From the NCBI RefSeq assembly GCF_024502345.1, contig NZ_JALDNN010000001.1: a stretch of 64,000 bases of DNA. One strand, 5' to 3'. The stretch is from Escherichia coli (GTDB lineage Bacteria > Pseudomonadota > Gammaproteobacteria > Enterobacterales > Enterobacteriaceae). Made by a program: the position numbers and the translations under genes. Shown here piece by piece: positions 3,846 through 52,949 of the stretch. A model generated the notes under the pieces. The model saw only the letters and a program-made list of their open reading frames with translations. It was not told the origin of the DNA and searched no databases. Within the stretch, counting starts at the first letter, position 1. Each line of letters opens with the position of its first letter.

Positions 3846-5177
3846 TTACCCCAAATCCGCCATCAACACTTTGGATTTACGCTGGTAGTTGTACAACTGC
3901 TTTTTGCTCTCGGGCAGTAAATCAATATCCACTGGGGTAAATCCACGTTCCTGGAACCAGTGAATACTGCGCGTGGTCAGCACAAACAATTTGCTTAAGC
4001 CGCTCTGCTTCGCCTGAGCGGCAATGCGTTCCAGCAGAACCTCGCCCCGTGATGAGCTGCGGTAATCCGGGTGAACTGCCACACAGGCCATTTCCCCAAT
4101 CTTCTCTTCCGGGAACGGATAGAGCGCGGCGCAGGCAATAGTCGTGTTATCGCGCTGAATAATGGTGAATTTGTCGATTTCCATCTCCAGCTGCTCGCGA
4201 GAACGGCGCACCAGAATACCTTGCTGCTCCAGCGGGCGAATCAACTCCAGAATACCGCCAATATCGTTGATTGTTGCGCGACGAATCTGCTCGGCGCTTT
4301 CCATCACAATCTGCGTACCGATACCGTCGCGTGAGAACAACTCTTGCAACAGCGCGCCATCTTCCTGATAACTGATTAAATGACAGCGACGCACGCCGCT
4401 GCGGCAGGCTTTCACTGCGCCACGCAAAAAGCGCACCGTACCGGAGTTGTAATCGCCTTTCTCTTCCTGGGCTTCTACCCGTGCTTGCGCTTCGTTAGGG
4501 AAAAGTTCGGAGACAATATCACCGTCGTCATTAGTGACGCCTTGGGAAGAGCAAAAACCAATCATCTTTTCAGCTTTCAGTTTGATGGCCAGTTGAGTAG
4601 CAATCTCTTCCGAGGTCAGATTAAAGCTCTCGCCAGTGACTGAAACAGCGACCGGCCCCATTAGCACTATTGCACCGCTGTCCAGTTGACGATGGATCGC
4701 GTCTTCATCAATCCGCCGGATACGCCCGCTATGGCAGTAATCCACGCCGTCATCGACGCCCAGCGGCTGGGCGATAATAAAATTGCCACTGACGACGTTG
4801 ATATGCGCGCCCTGTAGCGGCGTGTTATTGAGACTCATCGACAGGCGAGCAGTAATATCCAGTTGCAATGTTCCCGCAGCCTGCTTCACCAGTTCCAGTG
4901 TTTTGGCGTCGGTCACACGTATATTCTTGTGATACAGCGGTTCGTGGTGATGCGCAGCCAGATTTGCGTCGATCTGCGGACGTGCGCCATAGACCACCAC
5001 CAGACGGATGCCGAGGCTGTGCAATAACCCGATATCATTAACGATACTGGAGAAATTCTCATGCTCAATGGCTTCACCGCCGAGCATGATGACAAACGTT
5101 TTTCCCCGGTGGGTATTGATATAGGGAACCGAATGGCGGAATCCCTCGACCAACTCGGTTTTACGTTCCTTTACCAC
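3846..5177 (-). CDS. argA: N-acetylglutamate synthase (443 aa, GTG start)
   Basis: ORF 3846..5243; protein [41 protein letters not shown]... recognised as ArgA; start placed at the in-frame GTG to give 443 aa. Confidence 0.9.
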
Positions 5178-11272: not shown

Positions 11273-11500
11273 ATGAAAAAGACTGCCGCAATTATTTCTG
11301 CCTGTATGCTGACTTTTGCCCTGAGCGCCTGTTCCGGTTCGAACTATGTGATGCACACCAATGACGGACGTACCATCGTCTCTGACGGCAAACCACAGAC
11401 TGATAACGATACCGGTATGATTTCGTATAAAGACGCTAATGGCAACAAACAGCAGATCAACCGTACCGACGTGAAAGAGATGGTCGAACTGGATCAGTAA
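11273..11500 (+). CDS. ygdI: Small lipoprotein YgdI (DUF903, 75 aa)
   Basis: [23 protein letters not shown] lipoprotein signal; short ORF. Confidence 0.8.
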
Positions 11501-11516
11501 TTCGCGATCGCAAGGT

Positions 11517-11722
11517 AAAAAAAAGCACCGCAATTAGGCGGTGCTACATTAATCACTATGGACAGACAGGGTAAATGTACAGGAAGTGAAAAAAGGTAGC
11601 TTTGCTACCATGGTCTGAATCGCAGACCAATTGCAAACACAACAACACAACATCACAACCGTAAGCCAAAAGTTCACCAGAACACGCATTCCGATAAAAC
11701 TTTTCGTTCCGGCTCAGGAAGT
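11517..11722 (-). ncRNA. gcvB: GcvB small regulatory RNA (about 206 nt)
   Basis: Minus strand reads ACTTCCTGAGCCGGAACGAAAAG...GTTGTGATGTTGTGTTGTTGTGTTTGCAATTGG... and ends in a hairpin GCACCGCCTAATTGCGGTGC plus U-run; recognised as E. coli GcvB, divergent from gcvA. Confidence 0.9.
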
Positions 11723-11850
11723 GCCGCCACTATAGGTATTTGCTGGTAGAAGCTCAACGGACAATTTATAATGGCTCAGATTAAAAAAACTAATAGGTTA
11801 CACAGTGTAATCTAATTGTTAAATTCATTTAACATCAAAGTTTAAAAGCC

Positions 11851-12768
11851 ATGTCTAAACGATTACCACCGCTAAATGCCTTACGAGTTTTTGATGCCGC
11901 AGCACGCCATTTAAGTTTCACTCGCGCAGCAGAAGAGCTTTTTGTGACCCAGGCCGCAGTAAGTCATCAAATCAAGTCTCTTGAGGATTTTTTGGGGCTA
12001 AAACTGTTCCGCCGCCGTAATCGTTCACTCCTGCTGACCGAGGAAGGGCAAAGCTATTTCCTCGATATCAAAGAGATATTTTCGCAATTAACCGAAGCGA
12101 CGCGTAAACTCCAGGCCCGTAGCGCCAAGGGGGCGTTGACGGTCAGTTTACTCCCCAGTTTCGCCATTCATTGGTTGGTTCCGCGACTTTCCAGCTTTAA
12201 TTCAGCTTATCCGGGAATTGACGTTCGAATCCAGGCGGTTGATCGTCAGGAAGATAAACTGGCGGATGATGTTGATGTGGCAATTTTTTATGGCCGGGGC
12301 AACTGGCCGGGGCTACGGGTGGAAAAACTGTACGCCGAATATTTATTGCCGGTGTGTTCGCCGCTACTGCTGACTGGCGAAAAACCCTTGAAGACCCCGG
12401 AAGATCTGGCTAAACATACGCTATTACATGATGCGTCACGCCGTGACTGGCAGACATATACCCGACAGTTGGGGTTAAATCATATCAACGTTCAGCAAGG
12501 GCCAATTTTTAGCCATAGCGCCATGGTGCTGCAAGCGGCTATCCACGGGCAGGGAGTGGCGCTGGCAAATAACGTGATGGCGCAATCTGAAATTGAAGCC
12601 GGACGTCTTGTTTGCCCGTTTAATGATGTTCTGGTCAGTAAAAACGCTTTTTATCTGGTTTGTCATGACAGCCAGGCAGAACTGGGTAAAATAGCCGCCT
12701 TTCGCCAATGGATCCTGGCGAAAGCCGCTGCTGAACAAGAAAAATTCCGCTTTCGTTATGAACAATAA
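11851..12768 (+). CDS. gcvA: Glycine cleavage system transcriptional activator GcvA (LysR family, 305 aa)
   Basis: 305-aa ORF with LysR-type N-terminal HTH; recognised as GcvA. Confidence 0.93.
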   Translation: MSKRLPPLNALRVFDAAARHLSFTRAAEELFVTQAAVSHQIKSLEDFLGLKLFRRRNRSLLLTEEGQSYFLDIKEIFSQLTEATRKLQARSAKGALTVSLLPSFAIHWLVPRLSSFNSAYPGIDVRIQAVDRQEDKLADDVDVAIFYGRGNWPGLRVEKLYAEYLLPVCSPLLLTGEKPLKTPEDLAKHTLLHDASRRDWQTYTRQLGLNHINVQQGPIFSHSAMVLQAAIHGQGVALANNVMAQSEIEAGRLVCPFNDVLVSKNAFYLVCHDSQAELGKIAAFRQWILAKAAAEQEKFRFRYEQ

Positions 12769-47833: not shown

Positions 47834-48706
47834 TTACCAGCGGCCGGATGCGCCGCCACCTCCAGAAGAACCGCCACCGCCGCTAAATCCGCCGCCACTT
47901 GAGCCTCCACCGGAACCGCTGTTATCTGAATGATAACTTTTACCTGATGCTCTTTTCTGAAGTACACATAAACAGGTAAAGACCATAAATATGGTGAAAG
48001 TAAAAAAGAAGGAAAATACAGCAATGGAAAAAATTTTATCGGAGAACAGGAATAAATCTAAAAGATAGATTGCTGAAATATAGACTCCACTTTTACATGC
48101 GCGACAAAAATTACTGCCTTGATGAAAAAACCAGAAAGGGAAGAACATCACTGCAAATACCCAAAAAATAGCAAAGTAATAATGATCACTGGAAGACGCT
48201 GATTCACTTTCTGAAGGATTAGTCGGATATTGGTGTTGTGAAGTGAGTTGGTTATTCAAAGCGTTTATAGCTAGCTCTAATCCCTGAGCAAATTTTTGTT
48301 GTTTAAATGCGGGTATCATGTTGCTACGGATGATATCTCCAGCCAGAGCATCGGTTACCTTTTCTTCCAGCCCATAACCTACCTGGATGCGGACAGTACG
48401 ATCTGACCAGGCAACAATGATCAGTATCCCATCATTACGTTTGGCATCTCCTAAACGCCAATTGTCAAAAACTCTTGTAGCATATTGTTCAATTGTCTCG
48501 TCTTTGGTTGTGGGAACAATTAATACAGCAATTTGCACTTGGGTATTATTGAAAATAGATTCTAACTTGTGCGTCAGTTCTTTCTTTTCTTGTGAGTTTA
48601 AGCTACTCGTAAGATCCGTAACTTGTTGCTGTAATTGTGGGACAATAGTTGGTTGGGCTGCAACAAAGGAACATACGAAAGTGAACATTAGTATGAAATA
48701 GCGCAT
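47834..48706 (-). CDS. ygcG: TPM-domain protein YgcG with signal peptide and Gly-rich C-terminus (290 aa)
   Basis: ORF 47834..48775; start set at [18 protein letters not shown]; C-terminal [16 protein letters not shown] tail. Confidence 0.8.
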
Positions 48707-48998
48707 TATAAATTTCTCATTAAATCTGGATAAATAAATTGACGGCGGCATCGGTAATTTTAGATTCGTTATCATTAAAAACTAATACAGAAAAAATAAA
48801 TATAATTTTGGTGAATGTTTTGACATGATTAAATCCATTTTCTTTATTTTCTTCTGACATAATACGTTACTCCCTTTAATTATTAACGATATGTTTCGCA
48901 TTTTTCTTTAAATCTGCCTGTAACAGAATGTTAATAAGACATGATTGTTGTGGCAGGATCTGCAATAATTAACAATTATCCACTTCACAGAGAATGCT

Positions 48999-49670
48999 AT
49001 GCAGTACCCGATTAACGAGATGTTCCAGACCCTGCAAGGTGAGGGTTACTTTACCGGCGTCCCCGCCATTTTTATTCGTTTACAGGGATGCCCGGTTGGC
49101 TGTGCCTGGTGCGACACCAAACACACCTGGGAAAAGCTTGAGGATCGGGAAGTCTCCCTTTTCAGCATTCTGGCGAAGACCAAAGAGAGTGATAAGTGGG
49201 GGGCGGCGAGCAGTGAAGACTTGTTGGCTGTCATTAGTCGCCAGGGATACACCGCGCGGCATGTGGTGATTACGGGTGGTGAGCCTTGCATTCATGATTT
49301 GCTACCACTGACTGATCTGCTCGAAAAGAACGGTTTTAGCTGCCAGATCGAAACCAGTGGTACTCATGAGGTACGCTGCACACCGAATACCTGGGTTACC
49401 GTATCACCAAAGCTGAACATGCGCGGCGGCTATGAAGTGTTGTCACAGGCACTGGAGCGAGCCAACGAAATCAAGCATCCAGTGGGGCGCGTACGTGATA
49501 TTGAAGCACTGGATGAACTACTGGCAACGCTGACCGATGATAAACCGCGAGTCATTGCACTGCAGCCGATTAGCCAAAAGGATGATGCCACACGTTTGTG
49601 CATTGAAACCTGCATTGCGCGTAATTGGCGTTTGTCGATGCAAACACATAAATATCTAAATATTGCCTGA
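48999..49670 (+). CDS. queE: 7-carboxy-7-deazaguanine synthase QueE (YgcF, radical SAM, 223 aa)
   Basis: 223-aa ORF with radical-SAM cysteine motif CPVGCAWCDT. Confidence 0.9.
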   Translation: MQYPINEMFQTLQGEGYFTGVPAIFIRLQGCPVGCAWCDTKHTWEKLEDREVSLFSILAKTKESDKWGAASSEDLLAVISRQGYTARHVVITGGEPCIHDLLPLTDLLEKNGFSCQIETSGTHEVRCTPNTWVTVSPKLNMRGGYEVLSQALERANEIKHPVGRVRDIEALDELLATLTDDKPRVIALQPISQKDDATRLCIETCIARNWRLSMQTHKYLNIA

Positions 49671-49689
49671 TTAAACATTTATAAGCGTT

Positions 49690-50009
49690 ATAAATGGGTG
49701 GAACCTGTAAAGACTTCTACTCATTTATATTGTTTGTCGCCTCTGAAAACTCCTCCATTTTACCCATCCAGGGCTAATCATTAGCATTCTCTACAAATTC
49801 TGTGGCATTAATTTTTCGCTGGAGTGAAAATTATTGCGGTAAAGTTTGGTAGATTTTAGTTTGTATAGAGTTATTTTAAATATTTACCTTTTTAATCAAT
49901 GGATTAAGTGCTCTTTAACATAATGGATGTGTTGTTTGTGTGATACTATAAAGTTGGTAGATTGTGACTGGCTTAAAAAATCATTAATTAATAATAGGTT
50001 ATGTTTAGA
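49690..50009 (+). promoter_or_regulatory. AT-rich CRISPR leader
   Basis: AT-rich non-coding stretch directly abutting the first repeat, on the side opposite the degenerate terminal repeat. Confidence 0.6.
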
Positions 50010-50832
50010 GTGTTCCCCGCGCCAGCGGGGATAAACCGCGCGATTTGTTAGCGCCCGTTGCGCCTGGTGGGTGTTCCCCGCGCCAGCGGGGATAAACCGC
50101 GCGAGTTCGTGCGCATGGGGCGCATTTTTGGCGTGTTCCCCGCGCCAGCGGGGATAAACCGCGGCGTTCATGCCCTCCAGCACTGTTACGCGGGTGTTCC
50201 CCGCGCCAGCGGGGATAAACCGTAGTCAAGCGGTAATTCATCGCCTGCAGATCCGAGTTCCCCGCGCCAGCGGGGATAAACCGGCTAATTTACGTAATTT
50301 ACGTGCTATTGCACTGAGTTCCCCGCGCCAGCGGGGATAAACCGTGGGTCATGCCGGTGATCGCCTGCCCGTCGTGGAGTTCCCCGCGCCAGCGGGGATA
50401 AACCATCACCACCGCTTGTCATAAAATTAGCGTCATAGAGTTCCCCGCGCCAGCGGGGATAAACCGGGGAGTGGCACTTCTGGGGTAGCGGCGGCCCTGA
50501 GTTCCCCGCGCCAGCGGGGATAAACCGTCAACGCGCTCAGACGTTGCGTGAGTGAACCAGAGTTCCCCGCGCCAGCGGGGATAAACCGAAATATCCAGGG
50601 CTGGGCTGGAGGCAGACGGCGAGTTCCCCGCGCCAGCGGGGATAAACCGGCGTTGATGTTCTTGCGGGTGTTGCAAATATTGAGTTCCCCGCGCCAGCGG
50701 GGATAAACCGTTTCAGCAGTTCAGCGTAACACCGACGGTCACGAGTTCCCCGCGCCAGCGGGGATAAACCGCCCGGAATGCATTCTGAAGGTTTGCTGTA
50801 TATGAGTTCCCCGCGCCAGCGGGGATAAACCA
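50010..50832 (+). CRISPR. Type I-E CRISPR array: 14 repeats of 29 bp, 13 spacers (32-33 bp)
   Basis: Repeat GAGTTCCCCGCGCCAGCGGGGATAAACCG at strict 61-62 bp periodicity from 50010 to 50804; the first 3 repeats carry a GTG variant, and repeats 7 and 14 end in A. Confidence 0.97.
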
Positions 50833-51286
50833 CCATATAACCCGTTATCTCTTTCTCAAGTTTTTATATTAGCAGTACTTGTAATAAGCAACATATCCAC
50901 GTAACACCTCATGTTCAAAATAGTTCTCCATGCCAGAGAGGTTCACAATTATCGATACAAAAAATTAAATTTAATCAAAGTGTTATTTGTATGACTCTTA
51001 AATCGTTAAGAAATTTTAATCTATTATTTTTTTAATATTGAATTAATGCCTGTTAATTTTTTCTTTAGAATAACAGTATATTTTTTAAGCTTGTTATTCA
51101 TTGGTTAAGTAATAAATCTGGAAGTTTGTCTTTGTTTTGAGGCTAATGAGTGGTTTTACATAACCGCCTCTATACGCTGTTGATGAATAGTTCTTATGAA
51201 TAAAGATATCCAGTTCATACTTTAAGTGAAAATTGATAAAGTGCGATTCGTATTGTCTTTAATTCTAAAGACATCGAGTGTAGTTA

Positions 51287-51425
51287 ATATTCCTTGTAAA
51301 AACAGGGATAAACCGAACTAGTTAAAGTTTTTATTATGTTCCCTGCATCAGCGGGGATAAACCGGACTTGTTATCATTTTTTAAGTTGTCGAACTTATGT
51401 TCCCCGCGTCAGCGGGGATAACCAT
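51287..51425 (+). CRISPR. Degenerate CRISPR remnant (about 3 diverged repeats)
   Basis: ATGTTCCCTGCATCAGCGGGGATAAACCG and ATGTTCCCCGCGTCAGCGGGGATAACCAT separated by a 32-bp spacer, preceded by a partial ...CAGGGATAAACCG copy. Confidence 0.75.
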
Positions 51426-51437
51426 TTAGGTATGTTC

Positions 51438-51463
51438 AGGCCGGGCAGTTTTCCGCCCGGCCT
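51438..51463. terminator. GC-rich hairpin downstream of ygcE (no clear T-run)
   Basis: 9-bp stem aggccgggc/gcccggcct with an 8-nt loop. Confidence 0.4.
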
Positions 51464-51470
51464 ACCTCAT

Positions 51471-52949
51471 TCACGCATTCGACCAGCTCTGGATCGAATC
51501 CACATTCCCCAATTCCCCATGCATCACTTCATACGATTTTTTCAGGATCACATCAGTATGTTTGGTTAGGTCTTTGAAAATGCCTTTATTCATCGCGTCG
51601 TAGCGTTTGGCATTGCTCTCAATCGGTATAAAGATATCTTTCACGCGAACCATCTTATCAACAGCCGTTGCGTAATCCGGGTATAGCCCCAGACCTACCG
51701 CTGTATTAATCGCTGCTCCCAGACTTGCACAACCGTTAATGGCGTTACGGCGTGCCGGAAGGTTGAACACGTCGGCAAAAATTTGCATAAACAGATCGCT
51801 GTTCGAACCGCCGCCAGTAATGATCACATGCTTCGCAAAGTGATTCATTTCATTACACATATTGTCGTAATTGTTCTTCAGCGTTAGCGCCACGCTTTCC
51901 AATATCGAACGATATATCCATGCGTAATCCATGCTGGAATCAAAGCCGATCATAATCCCGCGTTTGTACGGTTCCCACGGATTGGTCAGCCAGTCCAGCA
52001 CCGTCATCAGCCCATTACAGCCAGGTGGCACACTAGAGGCTTTCTTGTTGAGTAAATCTTCCGGTGAAAGATCCTGCGCCCTGGCATCCTGAATTAACGA
52101 CTCGCCTAACATGTCACGCAGCCAGCTCACCGTCCACATACCTTTGCGAATACCGTAACCTTCATACAGCAATGTTTGCGGAATAGAAGACATAATCGGC
52201 CAGTACGCCACCGGATCTTTCGGCAGTGCTTTGCCGTTCATCATCAATGCGATGTAAGTGCCAAGAGAAATTACCGCAGTTTCATCATCCAGTAATCCGG
52301 CCCCCAGAGCTTCTACCGGTTTATCACTGGTGGTACAAACAACCGGCAGTCCTGCCGGGAAATGTGTCGCCAGTGCGGCTTGTGGTGTGATATGTCCGAG
52401 GACGGTGCCAGGCATTTGCACATCAAACAGCATATGACGGGGGATATTAAACTTATCCATTACCGCAGCATCTTCGCTCCATGCCCAGCTCTTATAATCC
52501 ACCGGCCACTGACCAAAATAGTTGGCGATATTGTCTTTAAACTCGCCGGTTAAGCGATGCGTCAGATAACCCGAAAAAGAGGTGACATACGCCACGTCAG
52601 GATTCGTATGTTCGTAAGGGCGTGTAACGCGTGCATCCTGCCAGCTAATCAACGGCGCAGCTGGCGTGCCGTCGGCTTTCAATAACGCACGGCAGCAACG
52701 GATGGAGCCCAGGCCGATGCCAACAATATCTTCTTTATTCCCGGCAAACTGGCTCATCAAATCGTGACCTGCAAAACATAATGATGCCCATAAATCGTCG
52801 TCAGGATGTTCTGCAGTATCGGCATAAGGCGTGTGCATCGGCTGTAATAAGCCTTTACCTTCGCAAACCACATTACCTTCCAGATCGTACATCACCACTT
52901 TTGTGCTCTGACTTCCGCCATCAATCCCTATGATGTATTTTTTCGACAT
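51471..52949 (-). CDS. ygcE: FGGY-family carbohydrate kinase YgcE (492 aa)
   Basis: 492-aa ORF MSKKYIIGIDGGSQSTKVVMYD... with actin-like ATPase motifs. Confidence 0.85.
   Translation of the reverse strand: MSKKYIIGIDGGSQSTKVVMYDLEGNVVCEGKGLLQPMHTPYADTAEHPDDDLWASLCFAGHDLMSQFAGNKEDIVGIGLGSIRCCRALLKADGTPAAPLISWQDARVTRPYEHTNPDVAYVTSFSGYLTHRLTGEFKDNIANYFGQWPVDYKSWAWSEDAAVMDKFNIPRHMLFDVQMPGTVLGHITPQAALATHFPAGLPVVCTTSDKPVEALGAGLLDDETAVISLGTYIALMMNGKALPKDPVAYWPIMSSIPQTLLYEGYGIRKGMWTVSWLRDMLGESLIQDARAQDLSPEDLLNKKASSVPPGCNGLMTVLDWLTNPWEPYKRGIMIGFDSSMDYAWIYRSILESVALTLKNNYDNMCNEMNHFAKHVIITGGGSNSDLFMQIFADVFNLPARRNAINGCASLGAAINTAVGLGLYPDYATAVDKMVRVKDIFIPIESNAKRYDAMNKGIFKDLTKHTDVILKKSYEVMHGELGNVDSIQSWSNA

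Follow-up and report, generated by a model that had tools for sequence, protein, structure and literature searches.

The window, by which we mean the whole 64-kb stretch of Escherichia coli DNA analyzed here, carries a type I-E CRISPR array (CRISPR2.3) in the intergenic region between queE (ygcF) and ygcE, and a second, much smaller set of repeats on the ygcE side of the same region. An earlier note, made from the sequence alone, had listed the latter as a degenerate secondary CRISPR remnant at 51287-51425, about 450 bp downstream of the main array. These coordinates are exact, and the measured distance to the end of CRISPR2.3 is 454 nt. The features of the locus are as follows.

48999..49670, + strand: queE (ygcF), an ORF, with queE annotated at the equivalent position in homologous loci; core gene flanking the array on the leader side
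49671..50009, + strand: AT-rich leader of CRISPR2.3 (leader 2.3), 30% GC, with ...ATAATAGGTTATGTTTAGA abutting the first repeat
50010..50832, + strand: CRISPR2.3, the main array (type I-E), with 14 repeats separated by 13 spacers; the equivalent stretch is marked as CRISPR by PGAP elsewhere
50833..51286, no strand assigned: AT-rich non-coding gap between CRISPR2.3 and CRISPR2.2, 454 nt, 28% GC, no ORF of 40 aa or more
51287..51315, + strand: CRISPR2.2 copy 1, ATATTCCTTGTAAAAACAGGGATAAACCG, 11/29 mismatches to the consensus GAGTTCCCCGCGCCAGCGGGGATAAACCG; hairpin and AUAAACCG handle intact
51316..51335, + strand: CRISPR2.2 short spacer, 20 nt, AACTAGTTAAAGTTTTTATT, 15% GC, invariant
51336..51364, + strand: CRISPR2.2 copy 2, 5/29 mismatches to GAGTTCCCCGCGCCAGCGGGGATAAACCG; handle intact
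51365..51396, + strand: CRISPR2.2 long spacer, 32 nt, GACTTGTTATCATTTTTTAAGTTGTCGAACTT, 28% GC, invariant
51397..51425, + strand: CRISPR2.2 copy 3, 6/29 mismatches to GAGTTCCCCGCGCCAGCGGGGATAAACCG when aligned ungapped; degenerate terminal repeat of CRISPR-II
51438..51463, no strand assigned: GC-rich 9-bp hairpin AGGCCGGGC/GCCCGGCCT, 7 nt from the stop codon of ygcE; neither strand has a U-tract
51471..52949, - strand: ygcE (FGGY-family sugar kinase), flanking gene on the trailer side

The stretch 51287-51425 is the known E. coli CRISPR2.2 mini-array of the CRISPR-II locus, and from copy 1 through copy 3 it is identical at every base to K-12 MG1655. As a discovery it is nothing new: it has been on record since 2010, and K-12 carries it unchanged. 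The nomenclature is that of Díez-Villaseñor et al. (2010), as relayed by later papers of the same group. Almendros et al. (2014) describe the ygcE-ygcF locus as holding either CRISPR2.2 and CRISPR2.3, 0.5 kb apart, or a fused CRISPR2.2-3 (PMC3903273), and CRISPR2.2 was also described by García-Gutiérrez et al. (PMC4489801). The literature definition comprises three repeats and two invariable spacers, and the element in the window agrees with it in locus, 0.5-kb distance, repeat number and spacers, with no difference. Just outside the element the window departs from most strains, with T for C at 51427 and changes at a few sites of the hairpin and junction. PGAP marks the main array alone as CRISPR and leaves CRISPR2.2 unannotated; that a very degenerate three-repeat array, unmarked by this pipeline, was recognizable from sequence alone makes it a useful calibration point. 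The scientific point that remains is that the remnant is far better conserved than the surrounding intergenic DNA and carries hairpins that look processable.

A second remnant in E. coli, the orphan CRISPR4.1-2 between clpA and infA, likewise has 2-3 repeats, a fixed site and no acquisition activity. Unlike that remnant, CRISPR2.2 belongs to the I-E family and resides in cis with an active-type array where cas-E genes exist, so that its expression by read-through, and its processing, are possible in such strains.

The main array mixes two published repeat variants, the 4 leader-proximal repeats starting with GTG (‘T-type’) and the 10 older ones with GAG (‘A-type’). Its spacer 2 is 33 nt long, and two of its repeats, at 50377 and 50804, have ...ACCA at the end in place of ...ACCG. 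Leader 2.3 is 338-339 nt long in 13/14 of the E. coli sequences compared (window and loci); that of E. whittamii (L008) is shorter, at 230 nt. Upstream of queE (window 47834-48860) there is a gene pair, yqcG (46 aa) and ygcG, also found in K-12; PU-1 and O157-type strains (loci L003, L005 and L015) have a LemA-family gene and a different TPM-domain gene upstream of queE.

Repeat copies, spacers and hairpins

All three copies are on the same strand as the main array. Their alignment to the consensus, which the earlier note had proposed as a check, gives the mismatch counts listed above (11, 5 and 6 of 29) and a hairpin shared by every copy. Copies 1 and 2 start 49 nt apart, the spacer between them being 12 nt shorter than canonical, and copies 2 and 3 start the canonical 61 nt apart. 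Where the earlier note counted two to three copies with one 32-bp spacer, there are three copies, with spacers of 20 nt and 32 nt. With a gapped alignment, copy 3 is explained by a C>T change in the loop (C13>T) and a 1-nt deletion in the ATAAACCG tail, giving ATAACCAT.

Copies 2 and 3 are beyond chance, since zero repeat matches with 3 or fewer mismatches are expected from shuffles of the window, and the closest site in the rest of the 64 kb has at least 10 mismatches to the repeat (Hamming scan). The Hamming distance of copy 1, taken alone, is at chance level (11 mismatches, as for several random sites); what qualifies copy 1 as a repeat is where it lies, an intact 3' half (CAGGGATAAACCG, 12/13), the canonical hairpin that it forms and the three-repeat count in the literature. 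Ten of its 11 changes are GC>AT. All three CRISPR2.2 copies start with ‘AT’, whereas the repeats of the main array start with GA or GT and never with AT. The CRISPR2.2 repeats belong to the type I-E (CRISPR2 / repeat cluster 2) family. An Rfam scan of 49600-51600 returned no match and missed the main array too, and is hence uninformative.

The consensus and the three copies have an identical dot-bracket structure, in which a 7-bp stem (positions 5-11/16-22) closes a 4-nt loop, with folding energies of -15.1 (consensus), -7.9 (copy 1), -12.1 (copy 2) and -15.1 kcal/mol (copy 3), and the three hairpins also form in context (fold of the 206-nt region). The multiple substitutions in the stem region mentioned in the earlier note would suggest broken stems; the stems are kept in all three copies. 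The stem of copy 1 carries C8>T (a G.U pair), C9>T together with G18>A, and C11>T together with G16>A; copy 2 has a single stem change, C9>T, giving a G.U pair, and the sole stem or loop change of copy 3 sits in the loop. All stem changes, across the copies, are transitions that are either G.U-compatible or doubly compensated. We rejected the compensatory changes as proof of selection on the hairpins, as enumeration gave p about 0.08, which is suggestive and not significant. Copies 1 and 2, which lie upstream of spacers, have an intact 8-nt AUAAACCG handle; in the terminal copy 3 the handle is truncated. Read on the minus strand, the G.U pairs are C.A mismatches, which interrupt the stems of copies 1 and 2.

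Strain distribution, spacer targets and the origin of CRISPR2.2

Of 5426 complete E. coli genomes, 4040-4120 carry CRISPR2.2 at 80% coverage or more. In O157-type strains (e.g., strain 140) the gap and copy 1 are retained, there is a single further repeat, and the 32-nt spacer is missing. The fused arrays of E. coli PU-1 and 19AR0646 run from the leader to a last repeat, GAGTTCCCCGCGTCAGCGGGGATAACCATTCAGG, that adjoins the ygcE hairpin; CRISPR-II of E. albertii has the same fused arrangement with two spacers, and E. whittamii has only a solo terminal repeat behind its shortened leader. All four of these end in ...GCGTCAGCGGGGATAACCATT followed by the ygcE hairpin; the gap, copies 1-2 and the two fixed spacers are missing from them. 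B2 strains are reported to carry a two-repeat CRISPR2.2-3 (PMC2941450). In E. albertii the hairpin at 51438-51463, probably the 3'-end hairpin of ygcE, is kept beside the terminal repeat; E. whittamii has lost part of it.

Every Escherichia version of CRISPR-II examined, gapless ones included, has copy 3 as its terminal repeat. The fused CRISPR2.2-3 (B2 strains such as LF82; PU-1; 19AR0646) and the arrays of E. albertii and E. whittamii share leader, locus and terminal repeat (GCGTCAGCGGGGATAACCATT) with the split form and differ in the start of the terminal repeat, which is GAG or GGG in these arrays and ATG in CRISPR2.2. Terminal repeats are degenerate at the 3' end, as reported by Touchon & Rocha (PMC2886076), and copy 3 shares this typical degeneration. 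In contrast to ordinary trailer ends, CRISPR2.2 is split off by 454 nt of non-repeat DNA and has, in addition, the diverged copy 1 and the truncated 20-nt spacer. The oldest, leader-distal spacers are known to be common to different strains (PMC3903273).

The terminal repeat of the fused arrays is a chimera, with the canonical GAG start and the T13 loop and ATAACCAT tail of copy 3, which would be explained if a canonical repeat had recombined with copy 3 to produce the fused CRISPR2.2-3 forms; the chimera fits deletion by such recombination. The gap may have been inserted, or it may have been deleted in the fused forms. It is absent from both outgroups (E. albertii and E. whittamii), and simple parsimony would favor an E. 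coli-specific insertion over repeated deletions.

The suggestion that the 32-nt spacer might match self or mobile DNA was not borne out. There was no match to it in the rest of the 64-kb window, nor in metagenome contigs once array context was excluded. The best match among INPHARED phages was 24/27 (E=0.3), the perfect matches in PLSDB were solely 4.8-4.9 Mb E. coli chromosomes mislabeled as plasmids, and the single IMG/VR match was the chromosomal CRISPR-II locus itself. The lack of a protospacer is usual for old E. coli spacers. One IMG/VR contig (IMGVR_UViG_2531839665_000019, positions 11480-12500) contains the array, the gap, CRISPR2.2 and part of ygcE; its ygcE homology ends abruptly near position 11480 with unrelated sequence beyond, and the contig could reflect an element inserted in ygcE or be a piece of chromosome mis-called viral.

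We consider it highly probable that CRISPR2.2 is a vestigial, leaderless mini-array at the trailer end of the type I-E CRISPR-II locus, and that it is immunologically inert. It may be the fossil trailer end of an array that was once continuous, or that of an old sister array which repeat-repeat recombination joined to it, and the trailer would have become separated from the active, leader-proximal part by the 454 nt of AT-rich non-coding DNA. Spacer acquisition would be impossible for CRISPR2.2, because it has no recognizable leader or promoter. Transcription would occur solely as read-through from the CRISPR2.3 promoter, which the literature places in leader 2.3 (PMC3903273); no intrinsic terminator is predicted on the + strand in 50833-51600, which includes all the DNA in between. 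If transcribed in a cas-E-positive cell, CRISPR2.2 would be a plausible Cas6e substrate, since the three hairpins and both AUAAACCG handles are intact. Processing would then yield one full-length crRNA (with the 32-nt spacer) and one short crRNA (with the 20-nt spacer), neither of which has a detectable target. In the literature searched we found no data on CRISPR2.2 transcription or processing.

Two of the loci compared have lost parts of this region. In E. coli OkiPb01688 (L004, 2562-3650) an IS1 lies 62 nt after the main array, and the remaining gap, CRISPR2.2, ygcE, yqcE and part of ygcW are missing. In E. coli IBS28 (L011, 2139-3100) CRISPR2.2 is retained and the truncated ygcE is followed by queD and cysJ, a deletion of ~12 kb; a similar ~12-kb deletion was reported in O156:H8 isolates (PMC5359238).

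Conservation of the 110-nt core

Diversity was measured in a sample of 12 strains spanning the identity range, with the stretch from copy 1 to the 32-nt spacer taken as the core. The values for these 12 strains are given below.

Gap (454 nt): 59 variable columns, pi 0.0455
Copy 1 to 32-nt spacer (110 nt): 2 variable columns, pi 0.0032
Copy 3 (29 nt): 4 variable columns, pi 0.0313
Junction and hairpin (45 nt): 8 variable columns, pi 0.0532
ygcE third codon positions (99 sites): 28 variable columns

The core has significantly fewer variable columns than the gap (Fisher p = 2e-4), and both spacers have none. Mean pairwise differences in the core are 0.35, versus 4.9 expected at the flank rate, a ~14-fold lower diversity. 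In searches across many genomes, the core is at least 99% identical in 3964/4155 genomes, while a size-matched gap control (megablast) is detectable in only 2843 genomes and at least 99% identical in 2183 of them. The published description of CRISPR2.2 as ‘invariable’ is thereby confirmed and quantified. These data also qualify the view of a decaying array. The array is degenerate, but the element is nearly invariant across the species, so its decay is old and is not continuing at the flank rate.

Variants among the 12 strains are few, and most of them affect loop positions, the wobble position of copy 2 or the part of the copy 3 tail that follows the cleavage site. An exception is E. coli strain 135 (L013), in which copy 3 (CCCCACGTTAGCGGGG) is unusual and one stem pair is broken (G10>A). 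The same strain has nine singleton substitutions in the ~50 nt upstream of copy 1 (window 51226-51272), a cluster that looks like a short imported or hypermutated tract ending at the invariant core.

The low diversity of the core hints at constraint, and is unexpected for inert DNA. One explanation is that CRISPR2.2 is an RNA element under purifying selection, giving rise to one or two conserved + strand crRNA-like RNAs or to a structured 3' extension of the CRISPR2.3 pre-crRNA; it might guide Cascade to a host or regulatory target, or serve as a processing or termination module. The contrast between core and gap, in the 12 strains and in the larger genome set alike, speaks for this explanation, as do the hairpins, fully intact on the + strand only, and the positions at which most of the few variants fall. 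We nevertheless regard it as unlikely. A target was found nowhere in phages, plasmids, IMG/VR, the window or metagenome contigs, and the preservation of the hairpins, given the transitions observed, is not significant (the p about 0.08 above). B2 E. coli, E. albertii and E. whittamii do without the element, and O157-type strains lack the 32-nt spacer. Moreover, the sample of 12 strains is small, and diversity within the gap is itself patchy, other 50-nt windows there also showing 1-4 variable sites.

A more specific proposal along the same lines is that CRISPR2.2 is selectively maintained because Cas6e cleaves its read-through transcript to one or two crRNA-like RNAs, conserved across the species, that act outside immunity, either in targeting host or regulatory sequences or as a Cascade-loading or processing module. 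Such a role, if true, would explain both the ~14-fold lower diversity of the core and the retention of hairpins on the + strand only. We judge it quite unlikely, and favor the vestigial, inert trailer.

The gap and the 3' side of ygcE

The AT-rich stretch at 50833-51286 had been put forward as a possible decayed leader of CRISPR2.2. It has 28% GC, against 51% for the whole window, and in this respect resembles the true CRISPR2.3 leader (30%). Local alignment of the gap to that leader gave a score of 29, versus 23.3±2.7 in shuffles, with 9/200 shuffles as good. The weak similarity covers 48 nt at about 230-275 nt upstream of copy 1, which is not the equivalent distance. A leader profile (nhmmer) was built from 16 extracted leader-2.3 sequences, of which one (E. 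albertii L007) was mis-anchored; the E. albertii leader was read directly from its locus. The profile gave E=13 on the gap and E=0.11 on the leader core of K-12 CRISPR-I, used as a positive control. Copy 1 is not preceded by the conserved leader-repeat junction (…TTATGTTTAGA|G). A sigma-70 scan found no credible promoter upstream of copy 1, all sites being at or below chance; the scan also missed the leader 2.3 promoter, returning no + strand site there, so a weak promoter in the gap could have escaped it.

These results bear on the idea that CRISPR2.2 was an independent second array, with its own leader in what is now the gap, which once drove transcription and spacer uptake. Along with the AT-richness and the marginal 48-nt similarity, the shared ‘AT’ start of the three copies would fit such an origin, as if the array had once grown independently by duplication of its own first repeat. 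The profile is blank on the gap, yet detects the leader core of CRISPR-I; the alignment is misplaced, the junction is missing and promoter-like sites are at chance level. In addition, the region is at its most variable in the gap, and the literature reports leaders solely beside CRISPR2.1 and CRISPR2.3 (PMC3903273). From sequence comparison, a decayed leader lacks real support, AT-richness being the only property common to both, and an independent array with its own leader is distinctly improbable.

Other origins of the gap were tried and rejected. A site at 50921-50949 (TAGTTCTCCATGCCAGAGAGGTTCACAAT), about two periods past the last repeat of the main array, matches the repeat at 17/29 positions; it forms no hairpin (z = -0.29) and varies between strains, and the window has ~60 sites with 12 or fewer mismatches, which is chance level. 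As this is the sole repeat-like site in the gap, origin of the gap from a decayed array was dropped as well. Mobile DNA was likewise rejected, as sensitive blastn gave no match in phages or true plasmids and the gap is single-copy in E. coli genomes.

The last alternative, that the repeat hairpins are unrelated to CRISPR and serve ygcE on the minus strand as stabilizing or terminator hairpins of its 3'-UTR, draws on the start of the element 46 nt past the ygcE stop codon, after a GC-rich hairpin with no U-tract, and on a strongly structured minus-strand fold (z = -4.4), but it is very improbable given the C.A mismatches that interrupt the minus-strand stems of copies 1 and 2, the invariance of two spacers that it leaves unaccounted for, and the lineages with fused arrays or a solo repeat that keep an intact ygcE without copies 1-2. 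The vestigial trailer-end mini-array thus remains our preferred reading of CRISPR2.2.

Two small ORFs touching the remnant were discarded as genes. One (31 aa, 51226-51321) overlaps the remnant; the other (77 aa, 51336-51569) is antisense to ygcE, and the 61-nt deletion of O157-type strains would put it out of frame. By gap identity, the nearest genome to the window is that of E. coli E2865 (L018; 15470-18169 and 33096-34573), which has a complete I-E cas operon 16 kb away. With just 6 repeats in its CRISPR2.3, E2865 is a different strain from the one in the window; its cas3 has an internal stop (pseudogene), and its ygcE is frameshifted.
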